From IMG/VR virus record IMGVR_UViG_3300031269_000004: a DNA stretch of 64,000 nucleotides; one strand, written 5' to 3'. The position numbers were made by a program, and so were the translations under genes. Positions 20,475 through 64,000 of the stretch are shown here, piece by piece (within the stretch, counting starts at the first letter, position 1; the number at the start of each line of letters is the position of its first letter). The notes under the pieces were generated by a model. That model did not search any database. It was not told where the DNA came from and saw nothing but the letters and a program-made list of their open reading frames with translations. The DNA is from an uncultured virus (IMG/VR IMGVR_UViG_3300031269_000004). Taxonomy: Duplodnaviria > Heunggongvirae > Uroviricota > Caudoviricetes.

Positions 20475-21386
20475 ATGCAAAACAAGCAAATAGAATACTA
20501 CATATTAGGTTTTAAACGACTTTCTGAATTTCCTAAACCGGGCTCTATTGTAGCACTGCCACAAACTGTTATTGAAGCTCATATAGAATCTATTGAATTG
20601 GAAAGAGAACCAGGAGCAGCAGCAAATGGCCTACGCATAGCAGCAAGACTACTAGCCCAAACTGACGTCGAACACAAAAAACTTTTTATTGACTCACCAG
20701 AAGAAGTTAAACACAAATTGTATTGTGAAGTTGCAGTTGGTGTAGACTCAATAATTATACCTGAAAGTAAGCGTGATCAAATGCTTGCTAAATTAGATAT
20801 CCAAAGTATGTTCATGTGGCCTACTGACATTAAGGATCAAGACAAATTTATAGAAATTGATGTTAATGATTTAGTTGTTATAGAGCCTGTACTTTGTAAT
20901 TGTGATCAACTTATTATTGACACAAAACCTAACGAGTCTACTAGCTTTGGTTGGCCAATTAAAACAAAGTCAAGCAAACAACTATATAGATCATACAACG
21001 CAGTTAGCAGCGAAGAACAAAAAGAACTTAAAGAAACTTTGTCTGCTCTATTATTCACAATGGGTCTAAAAGAGTGGTCTAGAATAATACCATACAACCC
21101 TAACATGTCACAGCATGCTACAAAATATCCAGCAGATGTTAATGCTAAATCAGGTAGCGACTATGTAAATCTGCTAAGAGAACACCCATTGCATCAATAC
21201 AGCAAGTTACTGTATCTTAACATTATTGCAACAATACTGGATCAAGGCCTACCTGTAGTCGAAGACCTAAGAAACGAGTTGTACTATTCAGTATTCGATA
21301 CAATGCTAGGTACAGGTGTTAGCGATGGCACAAGGACATATATCCCAAGTGATAGTAAGAAAAGACTTGATAACGAAGAAGACTAA
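20475..21386 (+). CDS. hypothetical protein
   Basis: Long ORF. Confidence 0.7.
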   Translation: MQNKQIEYYILGFKRLSEFPKPGSIVALPQTVIEAHIESIELEREPGAAANGLRIAARLLAQTDVEHKKLFIDSPEEVKHKLYCEVAVGVDSIIIPESKRDQMLAKLDIQSMFMWPTDIKDQDKFIEIDVNDLVVIEPVLCNCDQLIIDTKPNESTSFGWPIKTKSSKQLYRSYNAVSSEEQKELKETLSALLFTMGLKEWSRIIPYNPNMSQHATKYPADVNAKSGSDYVNLLREHPLHQYSKLLYLNIIATILDQGLPVVEDLRNELYYSVFDTMLGTGVSDGTRTYIPSDSKKRLDNEED

Positions 21387-21396
21387 AAACAAAATT

Positions 21397-22020
21397 ATGT
21401 TAGACACATTACAAAAAGAATACGGTGGTATGAACCACATTATGATAGACGTTGAAACTGTCGCAAAAAACGATACACCAATCATGCCTCAAATTAGTGC
21501 AATGCAATTTTGCCCACTAACAGGTGAACTAGGCAAATCTTTTGATATTAGAATTGATATGCAAAGTGCTCAGGATGCAGGTTTAGGTATTGATGTTAGC
21601 ACAGTTACTTGGTGGTTACAACAATCACAAGATGCAAAAAATACTGTATTTTTTAACGACAAACAACAATATATAGAAGTGCATGAAGCATTTAGACAAT
21701 TTTTAAATTGGCTAACGTCTGTTGCACCTTTTGGTGATAAGTCACAGCTTAAAGTTTGGGGTAACGGCCCTAGTTTTGATACAGCTAAAGTTCGTGCTGT
21801 ATACAAAAAACTTGGCTACACCGTTGAACCTTGGGCATTTTACAACGAAAGATGTGTTAGAACAATTAGTGCACTTAACGGTAACTATAAAAAAGAAACG
21901 GTATTCATAGGGACAAAGCATGATGGCCTTGCAGATTGTAAGCATCAAATTACATATATACATAGTGTTTTTCAGGACATATGCGAAGCACTAGCAGCAT
22001 CGATTAACAATAAACCGTAG
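21397..22020 (+). CDS. DEDDh 3'-5' exonuclease (ExoVIII/Rv2179c-like)
   Basis: HIMIDVET, WGNGPSFD, ERCVRT, HDGLADC. Confidence 0.85.
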   Translation: MLDTLQKEYGGMNHIMIDVETVAKNDTPIMPQISAMQFCPLTGELGKSFDIRIDMQSAQDAGLGIDVSTVTWWLQQSQDAKNTVFFNDKQQYIEVHEAFRQFLNWLTSVAPFGDKSQLKVWGNGPSFDTAKVRAVYKKLGYTVEPWAFYNERCVRTISALNGNYKKETVFIGTKHDGLADCKHQITYIHSVFQDICEALAASINNKP

Positions 22021-24750: not shown

Positions 24751-25275
24751 ATGAAAAAGTTGATATTTTTGGATATTGATGGTGTGCTTGCTGTTCCAGT
24801 TGAAAGTCATGCATGGGGACTAAGTGACGAGTTACAAACAAGACTTGGTGAAATATTAAACACTACAGGTGCTATGATTGTTATGTCTTCATCTTGGCGA
24901 AAGGAAACCGTGCACGACACAAAACTGTACATGGCTAGTCGAGGCTTTCAGTTTTGCGATAAAATAATTGGTGTTACTATTAGAGCATATCACTATTTAG
25001 AACGAGGTGCAGGTGTTCATCTTTCTATCCCTAGAGGTGTAGAAATCAAGCAATGGATTGACACTAACATACATTCAAACATGGGCAAAGATTGGAAAAA
25101 GCTTGATCTTGGTGTAGATTTTAATTATGTTATACTTGACGATGACACAGACATGTTACTAGAACAAAAAAGTAAATACATAAACGTTGATGGTATACTA
25201 GGTCTTACTGCTGCTAACGCTACTATGGCAATCAAAATACTAAACGAAAGCAACAAAAATCTTTTGAAAATTTAA
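24751..25275 (+). CDS. HAD-family protein (HAD_SAK-like)
   Basis: IFLDIDGV, SSSWR, RGVEI, YVILDDD. Confidence 0.8.
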   Translation: MKKLIFLDIDGVLAVPVESHAWGLSDELQTRLGEILNTTGAMIVMSSSWRKETVHDTKLYMASRGFQFCDKIIGVTIRAYHYLERGAGVHLSIPRGVEIKQWIDTNIHSNMGKDWKKLDLGVDFNYVILDDDTDMLLEQKSKYINVDGILGLTAANATMAIKILNESNKNLLKI

Positions 25276-40761: not shown

Positions 40762-41943
40762 ATGGAATTCACACAAGACTCAATTTTAGAAAAATATTGT
40801 ACTATTGGTCAAACATCAAATGTTGACAATACAAACAAGGCTTGTGTCTATTTAACTGTTAACACTATTACTAATAAAATATACGTTGGTGTTAGTTCTA
40901 AGATATCTAACGTTGTAGATGGTTCATATAAAGGCTCAGGTTTGCATTTACGTCGATCTATTGAAAAACATGGGTGGGGTGCTTTTGATTCTATAATATT
41001 GCTTTCATTTAGCAACATAAACCATGCATATGTAATAGAAAAAAGAATAGTAAGCCAAGCATTCGTGGAATCAAAAGCAACATACAATTTAAAATGTGGT
41101 GGTTCTGGTGGTTGGTCTTGGTCTAAAGAAATAAAAGAAAAGGCAAGTGCAAAATCAATAAAAACGGCAAAAAAGAATAGAGCATTAGGTTTACATAAAA
41201 TTCCAGCATTTTCTATTATTGGTTCAATAGCTAATACAGAATTCAAAAAGACACAAAAAAAGGCACACAATACGCAAAAGGCAAAAAGAAATCATGCTAA
41301 AGCTGCAGCTAAAAATTGGGAATCTTTAGAATATCGATCTAAAATACCAAAGAGAACAAAAGGTTTTACTGTTTTGTATAAAGACAATGTGTATATGCAT
41401 GTCTATGATGATGCACAAATCACAGCAAAATTAAAAGACGGTTGGCTTAAAAGAGGACCTAAGCATACACAAGATACGAAACTAAAAATTGCAAAATCAA
41501 CCAAGACTGCAATGACATCGTTTTTCGAAAACCCAAAAAATAATGCTAGATGGTCAAATATTAGAACAAAAATGTGGTCTGATGAAGAAACAAGAAAATC
41601 TATTGTCAATAAGCGAAAAGATGCTGCAATAATCAGAAAAATATACAGATTGCAATTATTAGACAAAAGTAAAATAAGCGAAAACATAATTTTATGTAAC
41701 GAGTCAATTAGACTTTTATGCAAATCTGGTTTTCATTTAAAGTTTAGTAAAATAAATGCATCGAATATAGCAAGGCATATTTTACTTAACTATTCTGAGT
41801 TAGACTTAAATGTTGTTATTAATAATGAAATAAAAGAATTTGTCATATTATGCAAATATATTTGGTTATCTTGTAACGATATGCAATGTACACAACCAAT
41901 TAATTTTTATGATAGAATAAGCAACTTACAACTTACAAATTAA
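40762..41943 (+). CDS. GIY-YIG homing endonuclease (Seg-like)
   Basis: VYLTVNTITNKIYVG, YKGSG, YNLKCGG, NUMOD3-like KHTQDTKLKI. Confidence 0.85.
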   Translation: MEFTQDSILEKYCTIGQTSNVDNTNKACVYLTVNTITNKIYVGVSSKISNVVDGSYKGSGLHLRRSIEKHGWGAFDSIILLSFSNINHAYVIEKRIVSQAFVESKATYNLKCGGSGGWSWSKEIKEKASAKSIKTAKKNRALGLHKIPAFSIIGSIANTEFKKTQKKAHNTQKAKRNHAKAAAKNWESLEYRSKIPKRTKGFTVLYKDNVYMHVYDDAQITAKLKDGWLKRGPKHTQDTKLKIAKSTKTAMTSFFENPKNNARWSNIRTKMWSDEETRKSIVNKRKDAAIIRKIYRLQLLDKSKISENIILCNESIRLLCKSGFHLKFSKINASNIARHILLNYSELDLNVVINNEIKEFVILCKYIWLSCNDMQCTQPINFYDRISNLQLTN

Positions 41944-52768: not shown

Positions 52769-54394
52769 ATGACGACTGAGGGATTCTTAAATGAGGCTAA
52801 TAAAAAATGGATAGCTAAAGGTTATGAATATGACATGTCTAATTGGGTTAATTTAGACACTAAACTTAACATTAAATGTACGTTGCATGGCACAGAATTT
52901 CAACAAAAAGCATGGCAGCACTTAAAAAGGTCTGCTTGTAGAGGTTGCAGCCGTATGAAATGGACGACCGAACAGGTTGTTATACATTTTATCGAAACTC
53001 ATGGCTCACTATATGATTACAGCAAAGTGTTGTATCGTTCTGCTACAGATAAAGTTACTATAGTTTGCAATATTCATGGTGAATTTCAGCAAACCCACAA
53101 GAGACACAAAGAAGGCCAAGCATGTCCAATGTGCTCAGGTAGAGCTAAAAAGACTAGTCATATAGTACAGGAATTCATTAACGTGCATGGCAAAGGAAAG
53201 TTTGATTGGTCTGAAGTTAAGTATAAAGGACCTTTAGTGCCAGTTACTGTTATATGCAATGAACACGGGCCATTTTCAATAACACCAAGAACACACATAA
53301 CAGGGAAAAAACATTGCCCTAGCTGCTACAATAATCCACTTTTGGTAGAATTAGCAAGCACGCTAGAGTCTAGATGCAAACATGTACACGGAGAAAAGTA
53401 TGAATACGAAGATGCTGTTTACTTAGCAAGGTCGTCAAAAATAGTAATTGCTTGCCCTAAACATGGCAACTTTAGACAAAGAGTAGACAACCATCTTAGT
53501 GGCAAAGGTTGCCCAAAATGTGCTGCTACTTGTTCAAAACAAGAGCAAGAAGTCAGAGATTTTATTCATTCATTAGGTTTACGTTTTAAGGTAAACTGTA
53601 GACAAACAATAAGCCCTAAAGAAATAGACATTGTCATAGAAAGCCATAAACTTGCAATTGAATATAATGGTCTATATTGGCATAGCAAAAAAGGCAAAAA
53701 TTATCACGCTAATAAAACAGAAAGCTGTAAACTGGCTGGTTTTAGACTTATTCATATTTTTGAAGATGAATGGCTAGAAAAAAGGCAAATTGTTGAATCT
53801 AGAATACGTAATATTTTAGGTCTTAGCAAAAACAAAATAGGTGCTAGGCAGTGTACAATTAAACAAATAGGTGCTAAAGAATGTAATGTGTTTTTAGTCG
53901 ACAATCACATACAGGGTAGTGTAGGCTCTAAACATAGGCTTGGTCTTTTTTATAAAGAAACATTGGTTAGTGTTATGTCGTTTGGCAATCACCGATCTGT
54001 ATTAGGATCAAAGTCAAAAATTGGACAATATGAATTACTAAGGTTTGCAGTTCTTAAACATAGCATTGTGCATGGGGCAGCCAGTCGAATGTTTGCTCAT
54101 TTTTGTCAGGACAAAAGACCAGAACAAATTATTAGCTATGCAGACAAAAGATGGTCTATTGGTTCTTTATACGAAACTCTAGGTTTTACTTGGCAGCACG
54201 ATAGTAAACCTAATTATTTTTATGTTATTGGTCAACAAAGAAAACATAGGGCTCAATTCATGAAGCATAAATTAGTAAAAAGTGGTGCAGACCCAAACAT
54301 GACAGAAAAAGAAATAATGTTAAAGAAAGGCATAGATCGAGTGTATGATAGTGGACATAGCGTTTGGGTTAAGCAGTTTAGCAGCGTTGTCTAA
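52769..54394 (+). CDS. putative homing endonuclease (C..HG.F zinc-ribbon repeats + PD-(D/E)xK/Vsr-like nuclease)
   Basis: Four C..HG.F...H...C..C repeats; EIDI...LAIEYNGLYWH; IHIFEDEW; ISYADKRWS. Confidence 0.75.
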   Translation: MTTEGFLNEANKKWIAKGYEYDMSNWVNLDTKLNIKCTLHGTEFQQKAWQHLKRSACRGCSRMKWTTEQVVIHFIETHGSLYDYSKVLYRSATDKVTIVCNIHGEFQQTHKRHKEGQACPMCSGRAKKTSHIVQEFINVHGKGKFDWSEVKYKGPLVPVTVICNEHGPFSITPRTHITGKKHCPSCYNNPLLVELASTLESRCKHVHGEKYEYEDAVYLARSSKIVIACPKHGNFRQRVDNHLSGKGCPKCAATCSKQEQEVRDFIHSLGLRFKVNCRQTISPKEIDIVIESHKLAIEYNGLYWHSKKGKNYHANKTESCKLAGFRLIHIFEDEWLEKRQIVESRIRNILGLSKNKIGARQCTIKQIGAKECNVFLVDNHIQGSVGSKHRLGLFYKETLVSVMSFGNHRSVLGSKSKIGQYELLRFAVLKHSIVHGAASRMFAHFCQDKRPEQIISYADKRWSIGSLYETLGFTWQHDSKPNYFYVIGQQRKHRAQFMKHKLVKSGADPNMTEKEIMLKKGIDRVYDSGHSVWVKQFSSVV

Positions 54395-59332: not shown

Positions 59333-60133
59333 ATGCCAGCACTAACAGCAGACAATAGCAATAATCCTAAATATCAACAGTTAACGTTTGAAGATGTAGC
59401 TTTCCTAGACTTGATTTCTTCAAGAATTACAGGTTCAGGCGCACTACCTTTTGAGTTGCCAGCTGATGCATTTTTTGCTATTGTTGTTAGATCACTAAAA
59501 TGGTTTTGGTATTGGTACCCTGACGCAACACAAGATCAAATACTGTTCATACCTAAACAGTCAATAGTTGATGCACCACAGTCAGGTGGCAACATTGACC
59601 TATTGCTACCTAACGGCATAGAAGGCATACTTGACTGGAAAGCTGCAAACGGTAGTGGTTTAGGTTACAGAATGGATGAAGCACTAAAAATTGGATTACT
59701 TAATACGTACGGTAGTGGCGGTGGTGGTCGTGGTTCAGGTTACGGTAGCAGTGCACATAATGTTAGTAATGCTGTAATTCAAATGTATGAAATTGCACAA
59801 TACAAAGAAACATTCACTAGAGGTATACGTGCAACGTTTAACAAAAACACTAGAATATTTAGACTAATGACTTCTATACCAGACGGTTTAGCGTTAGAAG
59901 CTGCAACAAGACTACACCCTGCACAATTGTATGGTGACTATATGTTTGAAGACTATGTTACTGCTGCAGTAGAAGAGCAACTAGGTCGAATTATGACAAC
60001 ATTTAACTTTAAAATGCCCGGCGGTGTACAGTTAAACTATGACCAAATAGCATCAAACGGTCGTGATCGCAAAAGAGAGCTAGAGGACGAAATTAAGAAA
60101 ATGAGTACATACGCAGGTATGCAATCAAAATAA
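59333..60133 (+). CDS. neck protein (T4 gp13-like)
   Basis: DYVTA..EEQLGRIMTTFNFKMPGGVQLNYD. Confidence 0.75.
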   Translation: MPALTADNSNNPKYQQLTFEDVAFLDLISSRITGSGALPFELPADAFFAIVVRSLKWFWYWYPDATQDQILFIPKQSIVDAPQSGGNIDLLLPNGIEGILDWKAANGSGLGYRMDEALKIGLLNTYGSGGGGRGSGYGSSAHNVSNAVIQMYEIAQYKETFTRGIRATFNKNTRIFRLMTSIPDGLALEAATRLHPAQLYGDYMFEDYVTAAVEEQLGRIMTTFNFKMPGGVQLNYDQIASNGRDRKRELEDEIKKMSTYAGMQSK

Positions 60134-60152
60134 AAAAAAAAAAAAAAAAGAC

Positions 60153-60476
60153 ATGAAACCTTTACAAGAATTAGTCTTTGAATCATTAGCAAACGAAGAC
60201 AAAAAAGAAGACAAGTCAACGTCAAGAAAGCCATTAGACAGTGAACAAACAAACAAAGGTCTAGACAAAAAAGCTAAAGAGTCTGGTATGCCAATTGGTA
60301 TACTTCGTGCAGTAATGCGTAGAGGTATGGGTGCATGGAACACTAGTCATCATGCTGGAATGTCACAAGAAGGCTGGGGTTTTGCTAGAGTTAATGCATT
60401 CATTAAAAAAGGCAAAGGTACATGGGGTGGAGCAGACTCAGATTTGGCTAAAGAAGTTAGAAAGGGCAATAAATAA
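60153..60476 (+). CDS. small viral protein with CTS-like leader
   Basis: MKPLQELVFES; KAKESG...RRGMGAW...WGFARVNAF. Confidence 0.65.
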   Translation: MKPLQELVFESLANEDKKEDKSTSRKPLDSEQTNKGLDKKAKESGMPIGILRAVMRRGMGAWNTSHHAGMSQEGWGFARVNAFIKKGKGTWGGADSDLAKEVRKGNK

Positions 60477-60496
60477 ATAAACAAACAAACAAAACT

Positions 60497-60856
60497 ATGA
60501 GGTCATTAAGCAATCACATTACGGAATCATTTGTAAACGAAGGATTAGATTCGCCAATTCTACCAATCGGTAAAATGAATCTAAAAACTGGTAAGTCGAA
60601 ATACTTTAACGTCTATGACGAGTGGAAAGAAGACTCAACTTATGAAATCTACGAACTAAATAATGGTTCAATTAGAGTAGTTATTACGTCTGGTACTAAA
60701 CCAATTGCTAAACCAGATGAAATTCGATCATTTAAGCACGACCAAAACGGTAGACCTCTATTTTTTGGTAAAATGGTTGACTTTGCGGTTGGCTCGCAAA
60801 TGAAAAATAAAGCTGCTAAATACGGCAACAGTATTAGTGCCTATGTTTACAAATAG
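60497..60856 (+). CDS. putative internal head protein
   Basis: MRSLSNHITESFVNE. Confidence 0.65.
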   Translation: MRSLSNHITESFVNEGLDSPILPIGKMNLKTGKSKYFNVYDEWKEDSTYEIYELNNGSIRVVITSGTKPIAKPDEIRSFKHDQNGRPLFFGKMVDFAVGSQMKNKAAKYGNSISAYVYK

Positions 60857-60881
60857 TAGACTTTTTAGACCATTATATTAA

Positions 60882-60912
60882 AATCCGGCTAGATTTCTAG
60901 CCGGATTGTTTT
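60882..60912 (+). terminator. intrinsic terminator
   Basis: AATCCGGCTAGA..TCTAGCCGGATT then T-rich. Confidence 0.75.
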
Positions 60913-60934
60913 ATTTATACATAACAACTTATAC

Positions 60935-61552
60935 ATGGCACTAGAATTATTAATTATCGATGGTACTGATCGTACTGGTAAGACCACAACAATAAACAGC
61001 GTAAAGTCAGAATTAACTAGGCAAGGTATTGACTGGATTGACTTCCATAACAAAGACCTTACATATCCTAAGTTTACAGATATTATGCATCCTCGGGAAA
61101 ACGAGAACTTTTACATGAAGCAATTGGAATACTTAGCAATACAGGCTAGAACTATTAAGCAAATGTGGCTGAGGTTAGGAAATACCGAAAGGCGCACTAT
61201 AGTCATAGCAGACAGAATGCATTACGCTTTTGCTGTTTATAACATAGTCAACAGGCCAGCGCTAACTAAGCGTTACTTTAACAAGGTCAACATGTATCAG
61301 TCTGTTTACGAATTTGAGTACTATTTACTGTCAATATTTGACTCAGTAAATCAATTTGTTTTCGTAGCAGGTGAAGACTTTAAATTTAACGATGACCTTA
61401 ATCACTTTATGTACAAAATGAAGTCTAGTAAATTACGAGAAGTAAACGAACACTTTAAGTCTTTTTTAGAAACAGAAACAAAAATGAGAATATACAAGCT
61501 TGAAGTAGACACTGCAACTGACAACTCGGGCGAAATTATAAAATGCATATAA
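60935..61552 (+). CDS. thymidylate/dNMP kinase-like protein
   Basis: IIDGTDRTGKTT, IADR, VY. Confidence 0.75.
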   Translation: MALELLIIDGTDRTGKTTTINSVKSELTRQGIDWIDFHNKDLTYPKFTDIMHPRENENFYMKQLEYLAIQARTIKQMWLRLGNTERRTIVIADRMHYAFAVYNIVNRPALTKRYFNKVNMYQSVYEFEYYLLSIFDSVNQFVFVAGEDFKFNDDLNHFMYKMKSSKLREVNEHFKSFLETETKMRIYKLEVDTATDNSGEIIKCI

Positions 61553-61553
61553 T

Positions 61554-62684
61554 ATGAACTTAATTTTTATTGCGTCACCAAACCAAAACTATTTAGAACT
61601 AATAGAAGAAACACTCTTGTCTTTGTTCACTGAAACAAAAGAAAAGTTTATAATATTTGATGGCGTCAGAAGTGAAGCATCGTCAAAAATAGCAAGAGGC
61701 TTGGCGAATACGTATAGCAATAGCATACATGAAACTGTATTCTCAAGTACAGGTGAACTGTATGACACAGTACCATTAATTGATCGTGTTTTCGTTGTCG
61801 GTATGCCTATGTTTAGTGATGTTGGTCAAAAACTGGCAAAGTTAATACATAGTAACTGGCATAATAGCAAGTATGATCGTGTCATAGATGGCGTTGACAT
61901 ACCACATGTTTTTATTGATCCAGCATTTCGTTTATATGCCGTGCTTGGCTTATATAGTCAACCTGACTTGTTCCATTTTGTGATAGACCCAAAAGAAATT
62001 AAGTTTATCTACGAAGGCAATACTCGTCAATTTTATTATGACAAAATGGAAGACTCTGACTATGAGTACTTACCATTACAATTTTACATGTACAGTCAAG
62101 GTCAGGTCAACCCAAGGCTAAAGCTAGCAGATTTCACTCTAGGTATTAGTTCATTTAAGGACAAAACTAGAGACACTATCATTGAGACTGTTAAAGAAAT
62201 ACAGAGCGCTGGCGACATAACAGTTAACCTTAGATACTCAATGTATGATGCCATTACCGGTGTAAAAACAAAAAGCACAATCGTAAGCAGGAATGAGTAC
62301 TTGCTAGAGGTTTTGGAATCTAAAATCACGCTAGTTGTGCCATCTTATCACATAGATACTTTTAGTATGCTTAGGTTTGTTGAATCTGTAATGCATGATT
62401 GTTTACCTTTAGTTCATCAACATGCAATGTGGACACTAATACCTGACATAGAAGTTATGGCTATCGTAGCAAATAACTTACTAGTTGACAATAACAATTT
62501 AGAACAAAAGTTGCATGAAATGTTAGACCAAGACAAGTGGCGCGAGGTACTTGACCGTTTGCAGGCAACAAAAATGTTTCAAGACATTATTGACCAGCGT
62601 TGGTATACACCAATGATTGCACAATTGGCCTTGACGAAAAGGTCAGCTAACAATTTTGGCACTAATGGTTTAATTAAACTATAA
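61554..62684 (+). CDS. GT-B-like glycosyltransferase candidate
   Basis: SKITLVVPSY...SMLRFVESV...CLPLV C-terminal GT-B pattern. Confidence 0.5.
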   Translation: MNLIFIASPNQNYLELIEETLLSLFTETKEKFIIFDGVRSEASSKIARGLANTYSNSIHETVFSSTGELYDTVPLIDRVFVVGMPMFSDVGQKLAKLIHSNWHNSKYDRVIDGVDIPHVFIDPAFRLYAVLGLYSQPDLFHFVIDPKEIKFIYEGNTRQFYYDKMEDSDYEYLPLQFYMYSQGQVNPRLKLADFTLGISSFKDKTRDTIIETVKEIQSAGDITVNLRYSMYDAITGVKTKSTIVSRNEYLLEVLESKITLVVPSYHIDTFSMLRFVESVMHDCLPLVHQHAMWTLIPDIEVMAIVANNLLVDNNNLEQKLHEMLDQDKWREVLDRLQATKMFQDIIDQRWYTPMIAQLALTKRSANNFGTNGLIKL

Positions 62685-62756
62685 AACAGTTATTTTTTAT
62701 TTTCTCTGTCAAAAAGAAAATGAATGGTGGAGTTAGGAATCAATAAATCAGTTCCC

Positions 62757-62861
62757 GACCTTATTAATCTTAGGATTAAGTTTTCTTTGCAATCGAAATA
62801 GGTTAAGATTGGCTAGTTGCTACAAGTAGCTAGATGAGGTTCGACTCCTCACTAAGGATCA
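62757..62861 (+). ncRNA. atypical tRNA-like element
   Basis: TGAGG-TTCGACT-CCTCA T-arm, preceding 8-bp arm, imperfect acceptor pairing; no canonical anticodon arm. Confidence 0.4.
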
Positions 62862-62894
62862 TTTTTACCGCATTGGTAAATACAAAATTGCATA

Positions 62895-63280
62895 GCTGTT
62901 AGGCTTTCAATGGTTCATTAAGACGAGAGTTCGAATCTCTCCGAGTCCACTAAGAATAACATTTTAATATGGGCTCGACTGGCATTGATTAGTGAGTATG
63001 ATTTGATAGTTAGGATATGTGATACTTTAACGGACAACGTTAGACAATTAAACCCTAATCATGTTGCTCTAAGAGCAGCTGCATAAGGTAAGACATCGGA
63101 GGGCATCTTCAAATAGCCCTCCCCCTTTAGGGGGTTAAAAAATAAAAAGACTTGTGTTAGTGAGGGTGTAAGTCCTTTCAAGATATCCACTAACTGGCTT
63201 TAAACCTACTCTTAAAGTGCCACCTATGTTTTAGTAGGCTAAGGAGGCCGAGTCTTTTACACCATTGAAAGTAACACAGT
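62895..63280 (+). ncRNA. ssrA: circularly permuted (two-piece) tmRNA
   Basis: T-arm + CGAGTCC-A (62925-62949) lies upstream of GGGCTCG (62971); G3-U70 pair; tag frame 63033-63086 ending AAA-stop; outer ends approximate. Confidence 0.85.
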
Positions 63281-63408
63281 GAGTACGCTGTTAGATCAAA
63301 TACAGAAAGGGATTCAGTATTTGATAAACCAGAATCCCTGAAAAACCCAAAGCTGGTTGCTTTCTTATTTGCTTATTGTTGGTTGTTATTTGTTGAAAGG
63401 CTAGTCAA

Positions 63409-63427
63409 TCGTTGACTAGCTTTTTTT
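63409..63427 (+). terminator. intrinsic terminator closing the RNA cluster
   Basis: GCTAGTCAA-TCG-TTGACTAGC T7. Confidence 0.88.
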
Positions 63428-63510
63428 CTTGTGCCATGCTGGCCGCTAAGTTGTAAAAACTCATCATTACATGCAATGTATACATATATTACTAAAAGTA
63501 AATTTAGACA

Positions 63511-64000
63511 ATGAACGACAATTCTCTAACAGCACAGCTCGAAAACGTAAACTTATATCACGCTAACATAGTAAAATTAGCAAACGGTTATATGCAAGCG
63601 CTTACTACTCAAGAGTCAGAAATTTCTGTTGCACTCGAAAATAAAGACGGTGGCATAACTAATGTCCTTATACCTTCAAATATTGCCTTGTCTAATAAGT
63701 TACAAAGACTATTACAATCTTTTGATAACTTATCAGGCTTAACTGAAAATCAATCTGCTCTGGTCGCACAGGACGGCAGTTTTAGAGAAATATTCGTAAC
63801 TTCTCATCGAAAATCACTGCCTTCTGTAATGGCAAGTGACATTGATATGGCATCTGATGTTAAACTATCAACAAACACAATTATTGAAAGCCTGCTGTCA
63901 CCCCTAACTGAAGTTGAGCTGACACTATCTGCTGATTACCAAAAGACTAGACAGACTAGAGTTACTAAGCTGTTTGTTACTGACGGTGATATGTCAACAT
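63511..64000 (+). CDS. partial late/structural protein (runs off window)
   Basis: Open frame MNDNSLTAQLENVNLY...; TATACATA upstream at ~63479. Confidence 0.65.
   Translation, partial: MNDNSLTAQLENVNLYHANIVKLANGYMQALTTQESEISVALENKDGGITNVLIPSNIALSNKLQRLLQSFDNLSGLTENQSALVAQDGSFREIFVTSHRKSLPSVMASDIDMASDVKLSTNTIIESLLSPLTEVELTLSADYQKTRQTRVTKLFVTDGDMST

Follow-up and report, generated by a model that had tools for sequence, protein, structure and literature searches.

A divergent permuted two-piece tmRNA gene, probably functional, in a T4-like phage contig

A 64,000-nucleotide stretch of DNA from an uncultured virus of the class Caudoviricetes (IMG/VR record IMGVR_UViG_3300031269_000004; the whole stretch is hereafter termed the window) carries, on its + strand, what we consider to be a real permuted transfer-messenger RNA (tmRNA) gene that is probably functional, with a probability of about 0.75. 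The acceptor piece (3' half) of the RNA is encoded first, followed by a spacer and then by the coding piece (5' half). We observed this permuted architecture together with a match to a tmRNA covariance model, a tag reading frame, and a location within an accessory insert of a phage genome. Permuted tmRNA genes of phages are already known and common, and the window gene is a divergent further example that is notable for a retained 3' domain, a long tag, a CCA end that is not encoded, and being missed by the gene finder ARAGORN.

Model matches and architecture

The Rfam model of permuted tmRNA, RF04321, aligned over its full length (model positions 1-213) with positions 62894-63086 on the + strand, scoring 51.1 bits relative to a gathering threshold of 47 (E = 4.4e-7 for the whole window), and was the sole Rfam family detected at gathering level in the 64-kb window. 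A permissive search added only a match to the model beta_tmRNA (35.1 bits relative to a cut-off of 84) that was local to the tRNA-like domain. None of the models for the three bacterial clades with two-piece tmRNA (RF01849, alpha; RF01850, beta; RF01851, cyano; gathering thresholds of 50, 84, and 70 bits, respectively) was passed, and the alpha and cyano models scored below the beta model. Twenty other viral or metagenomic copies all passed RF04321, whereas among the clade models only alpha was passed, by a single copy, the scores of all copies with beta and cyano being below threshold. Failing the bacterial clade models is thus typical of viral copies rather than exceptional.

A covariance model of our own, R1, was also seeded with nine permuted genes borne by phages or metagenome-assembled genomes (MAGs) with a short 5' region and a TAA-N2-GGC/GAC context (L081, L114, L198, L254, L260, L290, L313, L318, and the crAss-like phage cr273_1), excluding the window gene. 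These seeds displayed compensatory changes at 15 of the 20 predicted pairs of the T-arm, acceptor stem, and helix P2a. When R1 was applied to 32 sources, the window gene ranked first (95.1 bits, E = 6.9e-15). Other phage copies scored 50-95 bits (e.g., L052 at 94.6 and L192 at 92), an alpha-type copy scored 78.5 bits, a copy with its best clade-model match to beta scored 49.5 bits, and one-piece Bacteroidota genes scored 29-45 bits. Because the lead over the scores of 94.6 and 92 is small, R1 marks a broad phage-borne group rather than a tight clade. Collectively, the RF04321 and R1 scores, the tag frame, and the surrounding phage genes bear out the proposal of an earlier note, made from the sequence without database searches, that this phage encodes a permuted tmRNA with its own tag. 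The features of the gene are as follows.

62894-62949, + strand: acceptor piece (3' tRNA-like half), starting with motif GCTGTTAGG and ending with discriminator base A62949; 5' end unmapped
62903-62914, + strand: 5' strand of a 12-bp inter-piece helix (partner 63261-63272), from a repeat search and fold predictions
62914-62921, + strand: 3' strand of helix P2a, TTCATTAA, paired in the RF04321 and R1 alignments
62925-62941, + strand: canonical T-arm GAGAG / TTCGAAT / CTCTC, from the sequence and the RF04321 alignment
62942-62949, + strand: 3' strand of the acceptor stem, CGAGTCC (62942-62948), and discriminator A62949, from the sequence and RF04321
62950-62970, + strand: spacer of 21 nt, presumed to be removed, starting with CTAAGAATA and ending with ATAT, as in many marine metagenome copies
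62971-63280, + strand: coding piece, with acceptor 5' strand, D-loop analogue ACTGGCATTGA, P2a, tag frame, and structured 3' domain; 3' end unmapped
62971-62977, + strand: 5' strand of the acceptor stem, GGGCTCG, forming 7 of 7 pairs with CGAGTCC, including G3-U70
62989-62996, + strand: 5' strand of helix P2a, TTAGTGAG, from the RF04321 and R1 alignments
63028-63086, + strand: putative resume context UAACG (63028-63032), tag frame GAC...GCA (63033-63083), and stop codon TAA (63084-63086)
63063-63079, + strand: putative hairpin of 7 bp within the tag frame, at its 3' end, from the predicted fold
63098-63122, + strand: putative G+C-rich 7-bp hairpin GGAGGGC/GCCCTCC just past the stop codon, at the position expected for helix 5, from the fold
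63145-63258, + strand: 3' domain, predicted to be structured, with a closing helix of 10 bp (63145-63154/63249-63258), from a repeat search and predicted folds
63197-63238, + strand: candidate H-type pseudoknot, read by eye, with stem 63197-63203/63212-63218 and loop 63205-63210 pairing with 63233-63238
63261-63272, + strand: 3' strand of the 12-bp inter-piece helix (partner 62903-62914)

The tRNA-like domain resembles that of tRNA-Ala, comprising a 7-bp acceptor stem with the G3-U70 pair, a T-arm, and a discriminator A, the pairs of which are aligned by both RF04321 and R1. CTA comes directly after A62949, which means that the CCA end is unencoded. These elements and the 21-nt spacer lie exactly where the earlier note had placed them. 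The two alignments begin the acceptor piece at different positions (62894 in RF04321 and 62886 in R1). Helix P2a comprises 8 bp, two of which are G-U pairs, and the same helix carries compensatory changes in the nine relatives used to build R1. The gene lies in an 826-nt gap (62685-63510) with no open reading frame (ORF) of at least 50 amino acids on either strand.

The two pieces share a second pairing. Its core is a perfect 11-bp complement of CTTTCAATGGT (62904-62914) with ACCATTGAAAG (63261-63271), which a G-U pair extends to 12 bp; both this pairing and P2a had been described in the earlier note and were recovered in the sequence. Among 5,000 shuffles, 8 gave Watson-Crick complementarity of 11 bp or more between the two ends. 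Comparable top-scoring complements, at -22 to -48 from the T-arm, were detected in 6 of 19 loci (L069, L213, L171, L070, L052, and L061); L069 is a copy of the window gene itself, and without it the count is 5 of 18 other loci. In the predicted precursor fold (-120 kcal/mol, z = -4.34; none of 100 dinucleotide-preserving shuffles folded equally well), a further 5 bp (62895-62899/63276-63280) form beyond a 3-nt internal loop of the 12-bp helix. The opposite strand also folds well (z = -3.98), and hence the strand is not given by folding energy alone but by the models and the tag. When the two pieces were co-folded (z = -4.7), the minimum-energy structure contained the acceptor stem and the 12-bp helix.

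The coding piece does not have the minimal size that characterizes permuted tmRNAs of the crAss-like type, since about 190 nt of strongly folding RNA separate the stop codon from the closing helix. Only two single-base variants were observed in copies of the gene, and neither breaks a helix: T63218C (contig L002) converts a G-U to a G-C pair in the stem of the candidate pseudoknot, and C63179T falls in a predicted loop. The structure of the 3' domain is otherwise a prediction, with which T63218C is weakly consistent.

The tag frame was confirmed by translation: the frame ending at 63086 reads ...TDNVRQLNPNHVALRAAA followed by the stop codon. The putative tag comprises 17 residues (DNVRQLNPNHVALRAAA) with an Ala-Ala carboxyl end, read from a short frame that has no start codon, as is expected of tmRNA tags. 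In shuffles of the coding piece, frames that stayed open for 10 or more codons and ended in AAA-stop at a plausible distance were obtained 11 times in 20,000 (p about 5e-4), and frames ending in AA-stop 274 times in 20,000.

The resume codon was predicted by alignment with viral permuted genes that share TAA-N2-G(G/A)C-AA(C/T). In this alignment the codon starts 5 nt past the T of the conserved TAA, that is, at G63033, giving the frame GAC AAC GTT... In Escherichia coli, the frame is set by U at -5 and A at -4 from the resume codon. U63028 and A63029 occupy positions -5 and -4 relative to G63033, and the spacing is kept in the relatives; an identical 5-nt spacing was found in 15 other viral or MAG copies from a motif search. 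Four of these copies (L046, L055, L072, and L093), as well as L198, would resume at GAC with tags that start with DN. The resume motif (TAACG followed by GACAAC) lies 57 nt from the 5' end, within the interval of 55-60 nt seen in the crAss-like type. Contigs from two other salt-lake runs stop in or beside the tag region (at 63023/63048 and 63032/63091), which may reflect strain variation in the tag.

Relationship to other tmRNAs

Permuted tmRNA genes were abundant in viral and metagenomic sequences. A loose pattern (T-arm, TCCA, short spacer, and tmRNA 5' end) matched at least 117 IMG/VR stretches; the matches listed comprised 100 distinct sequences after parsing, mostly with classical tags such as ...ANDNVYALAA. 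A narrower pattern that was fitted to the window gene (TCCACT...ACTGGNNTTGA; in full, GTTCGANTC-N8-TCCACT-N8-30-GGG-N4-ACTGG-NN-TTGA) matched 118 metagenome stretches, most of them marine, and none of 185,579 species-representative prokaryote genomes. This contrast raises the possibility that such permuted tmRNAs form a type restricted to viruses. When the narrow pattern was relaxed, 52 genome matches were recovered, five of which had a fully paired acceptor stem, and all five were in MAG contigs.

No close relative of the window gene was detected by sequence similarity. Searches of the RNA with blastn and megablast against 50,697 phage records returned no match, an exact 25-nt pattern in IMG/VR retrieved two near-identical contigs and one unrelated tRNA cluster and nothing else, and blastn against all fetched loci revealed similarity that was confined to the tRNA-like domain. 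The neck protein of the phage, used as a query alone or aligned with that of Tenacibaculum phage PTm1, retrieved only the same contig and PTm1.

The RefSeq record of the crAss-like phage cr273_1 (NC_055904.1) has a gene annotated as 'transfer-messenger RNA, SsrA' that ARAGORN calls as permuted; its tag is GNINVVDYTGLQEAA, and it scored 46.2 bits with RF04321, just below the cut-off. Table S1 of Buchholz et al. (2022; PMC9004378) lists 53 two-piece phage tmRNAs in rows marked 'Permuted', including those of crAss-like phages and Cellulophaga phage phi4:1, and the paper on the tmRNA database (PMC11915505), in which the model RF04321 is described, gives a count of 79 phage tmRNAs. RF04321 merges RF01849, RF01850, and RF01851, and the database comprises 97,179 sequences, 11,946 of which are permuted. 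In the accessible portions of the literature on permuted or two-piece phage tmRNAs, we found no analysis of a phage-specific permuted family; the taxon-by-form table of the tmRNA database may list such genes.

Two published phages were also considered, the first of which was set aside as a comparator. In phi4:1 (KC821632.1; L328, 40420-41081), the nearest published case from a phage of Bacteroidota, we found neither an RF04321 match nor the T-arm/TCCA pattern, and the ARAGORN 'permuted' call spans the annotated genes for tRNA-Tyr, tRNA-Ser, and tRNA-Asn. Given these negatives and the tRNA overlap, the published phi4:1 entry is probably a false positive. For Maribacter phage Panino, the accessible text of the paper mentions a phage copy of tmRNA and does not state whether it is permuted. 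A further variation was apparent in two marine metagenome contigs (L146, 1-382, and L203), in which a complete tRNA gene, with an anticodon read as GCA (Cys), occupies the intervening segment of a permuted tmRNA, flanked on one side by the 3' half, which corresponds to RF00023 positions 236-374, and on the other by the 5' coding piece.

The window gene most resembles the crAss-like type (cr273_1, L081, L318, L260, L198, L254, L114, L313, and L290), with which it shares gene order, tRNA-like domain, and P2a, a resume motif 55-60 nt from the 5' end with no room for pseudoknot 1, and a TAA-N2 context followed by a G-initial resume codon and AAC/AAT, such that tags open with G/D-N. A motif at the start of the acceptor piece (CTGTTAGG) is common to the window gene and two of the nine R1 seeds (L081 and L318), and the spacer ends CTAAGAATA...ATAT are common to the window gene and many marine metagenome copies. 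However, coding pieces of the crAss-like type, as read from their sequences, are short (the whole-gene length with spacer given by ARAGORN is 300-370 nt for L081, L318, L313, and L361), whereas the coding piece in the window is about 305 nt and adds the structured 3' domain and the 12-bp closing helix. Moreover, the window tag (DNVRQLNPNHVALRAAA) does not follow their ...DYTG...AA pattern, and ARAGORN calls five of the six crAss-like genes on which it was run (including L081, L318, L313, and L361, and not L290) and misses the window gene.

Phages described in PMC9004378 (the OM43 phage Melnitz, pelagimyophages, cyanophages, and others) are likewise large aquatic myophages for which permuted ssrA genes with their own tags are reported and for which the same roles were proposed. 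Those genes are ARAGORN calls, whereas the window gene fails ARAGORN as well as the alpha, beta, and cyano models. The Melnitz tmRNA is reported to group with alphaproteobacterial tmRNA and to have a glutamine riboswitch, whereas no riboswitch match was detected in the window by the Rfam scan. The two-piece tmRNAs of Alphaproteobacteria and of betaproteobacterial and cyanobacterial lineages (RF01849, RF01850, and RF01851) have the same permutation and tRNA-like domain as the window gene, but the RF04321 consensus has CCACCA where CCA is unencoded in the window gene, and their D-loop analogue is TTCGA rather than TTGA.

One-piece tmRNAs of Bacteroidota and huge phages (LR756500.1 and Lak-A1) share with the window gene TGG-NN-TTGAC (in four examples) and a CCA that is often unencoded, and their tags open with G. 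However, they are unpermuted, and their resume codon is at +96 to +113 as compared to +63 in the window gene. Standard tmRNAs above the RF00023 cut-off were identified in 117 of 121 sampled Bacteroidota genomes, in agreement with the earlier note that ssrA in this phylum is normally one-piece. In 21 of 30 tmRNA genes from this sample the CCA was unencoded; these 30 were the best-scoring of the phylum sample and are thus biased toward consensus-like genes. One-piece tmRNAs with the TGG-NN-TTGA variant numbered four, of which three were from Bacteroidota genomes and one was from a megaphage. We dropped the TTGA variant of the D-loop as a signature of Bacteroidota origin, since only one of the 30 best-scoring tmRNAs of the phylum has it.

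Carrier phage and elements flanking the gene

Proteins encoded in the window were assigned by PHROG and Pfam to a T4-like phage, including a portal, a prohead protease, a gp23-type capsid protein, a gp2 end protector, a clamp loader, and neck and head-completion proteins. The capsid protein is 57% identical to its counterpart in Tenacibaculum phage PTm1 (225 kb). In all, its matches comprised 31 phage records, 23 with Bacteroidota hosts (5 Tenacibaculum, 15 Prevotella Lak phages, 2 Chryseobacterium, and 1 Flavobacterium), 2 of Sphingomonas phage PAU, and 6 of uncultured huge phages. Since these matches are mostly to phages of Bacteroidota, the host is likely a member of this phylum. The carrier is a lytic-looking T4-like jumbo phage. 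No integrase family was detected among the 59 window proteins scanned with Pfam. Near-identical copies of the gene were identified in two IMG/VR contigs and in five salt-lake metagenome DNA runs, three of which are possibly the source of the window DNA.

Comparison with PTm1 delimits an insert around the tmRNA gene. A gap of 38 nt separates the neck gene from ORF-003 in PTm1, where the two are adjacent, whereas their homologs in the window (59333-60133, 45% identity, and 63511-63999, 42% identity, respectively) are separated by 3,377 nt. The insert contains four ORFs, which encode a DUF5824 protein, a weakly dTMP-kinase-like protein, and two proteins of unknown family (one of 376 amino acids). 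Only the DUF5824 and weak dTMP-kinase matches were obtained when these four ORFs were examined for a CCA-adding enzyme or SmpB. The tmRNA gene, positioned in an insert within the structural module, is therefore accessory cargo. Elements that flank the gene are listed below.

60134-63510: 3.4-kb insert that is not present in PTm1, with four ORFs, a tRNA-like element, and the tmRNA gene
62767-62859, + strand: upstream tRNA-like element, 35 nt before the tmRNA gene, with a T-arm look-alike TGAGG/TTCGACT/CCTCA at 62835-62851
63395-63425, + strand: terminator-like hairpin with a T-run after it, at which the primary transcript likely ends

Relatives of the phage carry either no detected tmRNA or a one-piece form. 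An RF04321 scan of PTm1, PAU, pT24, MA9V-1, MaF61, LR756500.1, and Lak-A1 yielded no match. When five of these were searched with RF00023, LR756500.1 and Lak-A1 yielded one-piece tmRNAs (95.5 and 54 bits, respectively), and no match was obtained in PTm1, MA9V-1, or MaF61.

In the upstream element, the T-arm look-alike is followed by CACTAAGGATCATTTTT, which matches 13 of 17 bases of the sequence after the tmRNA 3' end (CACTAAGAATAACATTT). Its CCTCACTAA is complementary to TTAGTGAGG (63157-63165) and to the P2a strand at 62989-62996. The element received no ARAGORN call and no Rfam tRNA match at E-values up to 10, and its fold has a z-score of -1.61. It could be a former tRNA that has decayed or what remains of an acceptor piece that was duplicated, or it could serve as a processing signal; it is possibly co-transcribed with the tmRNA gene. 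An 8-nt direct repeat, GCTGTTAG, brackets the tmRNA gene, with one copy at its start (62895-62902) and one just beyond its end (63287-63294), and two hairpins (63288-63339) precede the terminator.

Elsewhere in the window, genes for homing/HNH endonucleases (40762-41943 and 52769-54394) adjoin the portal and major capsid genes, and PTm1 has a Hef-like homing endonuclease at the equivalent site after its capsid gene. Two further regions encode an Rv2179c-like 3'-5' exoribonuclease domain (21316-22020) and a HAD domain of the kind found in 'Swiss Army Knife' RNA-repair proteins (24751-25275).

Proposed function, rival explanations, and implications

From these features we infer transcription, processing, charging, tagging, and proteolysis as follows. 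A single precursor would be transcribed from about 62886 to the terminator at 63395-63425. Host RNase P would cleave 5' of G62971, a host 3' processing activity would trim the RNA past A62949, and the host CCA-adding enzyme would add CCA. The two pieces would be held together by the 7-bp acceptor stem, the 8-bp P2a, and the 12-bp (possibly 17-bp) inter-piece helix. Alanyl-tRNA synthetase would charge the RNA by way of G3-U70, and SmpB, for which the RNA would depend on the host, would carry it to stalled ribosomes. Translation would then resume at GAC 63033, appending (A)DNVRQLNPNHVALRAAA, whose Ala-Ala terminus would be expected to target the tagged protein to host proteases. The phage would benefit in that ribosomes are kept free during infection.

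Several observations weigh against a functional permuted tmRNA. The margin of the RF04321 match is just 4 bits, and the score is below those of all 20 other viral or metagenomic copies (52-107 bits). The earlier note had proposed Infernal and ARAGORN as checks, and these disagree: RF04321 is positive, whereas ARAGORN calls no tRNA or tmRNA in the whole window or in the near-identical locus L008. Among the other permuted loci on which it was run, ARAGORN calls eight, plus cr273_1. The CCA is unencoded downstream of A62949, and the tag opens with GAC and has no GCN codon at that position; a competing register, GGA CAA CGT TAG, is possible and would yield a tag of three residues. From P2a to the resume codon there are only 36 nt (62996 to 63033), so the usual pseudoknot 1 cannot form, and the hairpin of that region in RF04321 was aligned with non-standard pairs. 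Pseudoknot 1 is not universal in tmRNAs. Further, no relative that shares the 3' domain was found by blastn over the fetched loci or with the neck protein as query, so that this domain has no covariation support. The search for a phage smpB gene that the earlier note had suggested was negative: SmpB (PF01668) was not found in the 59 scanned ORFs of the window (at least 100 amino acids), in two partial contigs of the same phage, or in the partial record of the nearest virus, nor was it found in PTm1 or LR756500.1. Finally, no RNA run matched the tmRNA region, the matches being to five DNA runs only.

Some of these observations would be accounted for if the locus encoded a decaying or non-tagging tmRNA-like RNA, either a relic or a decoy. 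Instead of tagging proteins, a decoy would sequester host SmpB or alanyl-tRNA synthetase and block trans-translation by the host. The low model score, the ARAGORN miss, the lack of pseudoknot 1, and the ambiguous resume register are all compatible with such an RNA, and a phage tmRNA without a coding sequence, that of DS6A, is reported to inhibit endogenous E. coli tmRNA (PMC11915505). We nevertheless regard a relic or decoy as improbable, given that the tag frame is intact and ends in AAA-stop, all pairs of the tRNA-like domain are intact, and the sequence is nearly unchanged across the two IMG/VR contigs and five metagenome runs (three possibly the source). Many relatives likewise have no room for pseudoknot 1, and their helices covary. 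It is far harder to credit that the locus is an integration-site remnant, that is, tmRNA fragments acquired or kept as attP by a temperate element and without an RNA function. Genes for tRNA and tmRNA are common integration sites, and the idea is raised in the Panino paper for a flavobacterial phage, but here the locus has both halves, which are co-adapted, as well as a short spacer, a tag frame, and a helix that closes the structure, and it lies in the structural-gene module of a T4-like phage with no integrase family among its 59 window proteins.

A different question is where the permutation arose. The earlier note had suggested an independent permutation in a phage, which in this lineage would have started from a one-piece tmRNA of host or megaphage type, for example, through a tandem duplication after which the outer halves were lost. 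Such a history is consistent with the one-piece tmRNAs of two related huge phages (LR756500.1 and Lak-A1), the unencoded CCA of 21 of the 30 sampled Bacteroidota genes, the TGG-NN-TTGA variant in the four one-piece tmRNAs, and the rejection of the window gene by the alpha, beta, and cyano models. In addition, the degenerate T-arm element 90 nt upstream and the repeat of CACTAAGGAT and CACTAAGAAT could be the remnant of a duplicated 3' half. However, none of the tRNA or tmRNA models matches the upstream element, the TTGA variant is rare among the sampled tmRNAs of the phylum (1 of 30), and R1, which was built only from other permuted phage and MAG genes, ranks the window gene first of 32. The gene also shares with phage permuted genes the distance of 55-60 nt from 5' end to resume codon and the TAA-N2-G context, has CTGTTAGG in common with two R1 seeds and the spacer ends CTAAGAATA...ATAT in common with marine copies, and lies in an insert that PTm1 does not have. 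With permuted genes abundant in viral contigs and an annotated case in a crAss-like phage, an independent permutation is not supported and appears unlikely. The traits shared with the phage group and the location in an insert make acquisition of a ready-permuted gene the simplest history, and the same conclusion follows from the seven phage relatives with no tmRNA or a standard one and the absence of the insert from PTm1. These observations suggest that, most likely, the gene entered the phage genome in permuted form, from a pool of phage-borne permuted tmRNAs.

The window gene adds a well-delimited and rather complete case to the little-analysed two-piece tmRNAs of phages, in a clade of jumbo phages in which the other known members carry either a one-piece tmRNA or none. 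It also indicates that surveys based on ARAGORN err both ways, in that a real gene is missed (that in the window) and one that is probably false is included (phi4:1). We speculate, with considerable doubt, that phages of Bacteroidota and of other hosts with one-piece tmRNA share a phage-only permuted lineage that is separate from the alpha, beta, and cyano types. The window gene might then be its least reduced form, keeping a pseudoknot domain and a long helix, and the upstream T-arm element might be the footprint of a tandem duplication. The 118 metagenome matches as compared to none in 185,579 genomes, together with the failure of the three clade models, lend indirect support to such a lineage. 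If it exists, tmRNA permutation would be a recurrent or mobile trait that is spread by viruses, rather than a marker of three bacterial clades.

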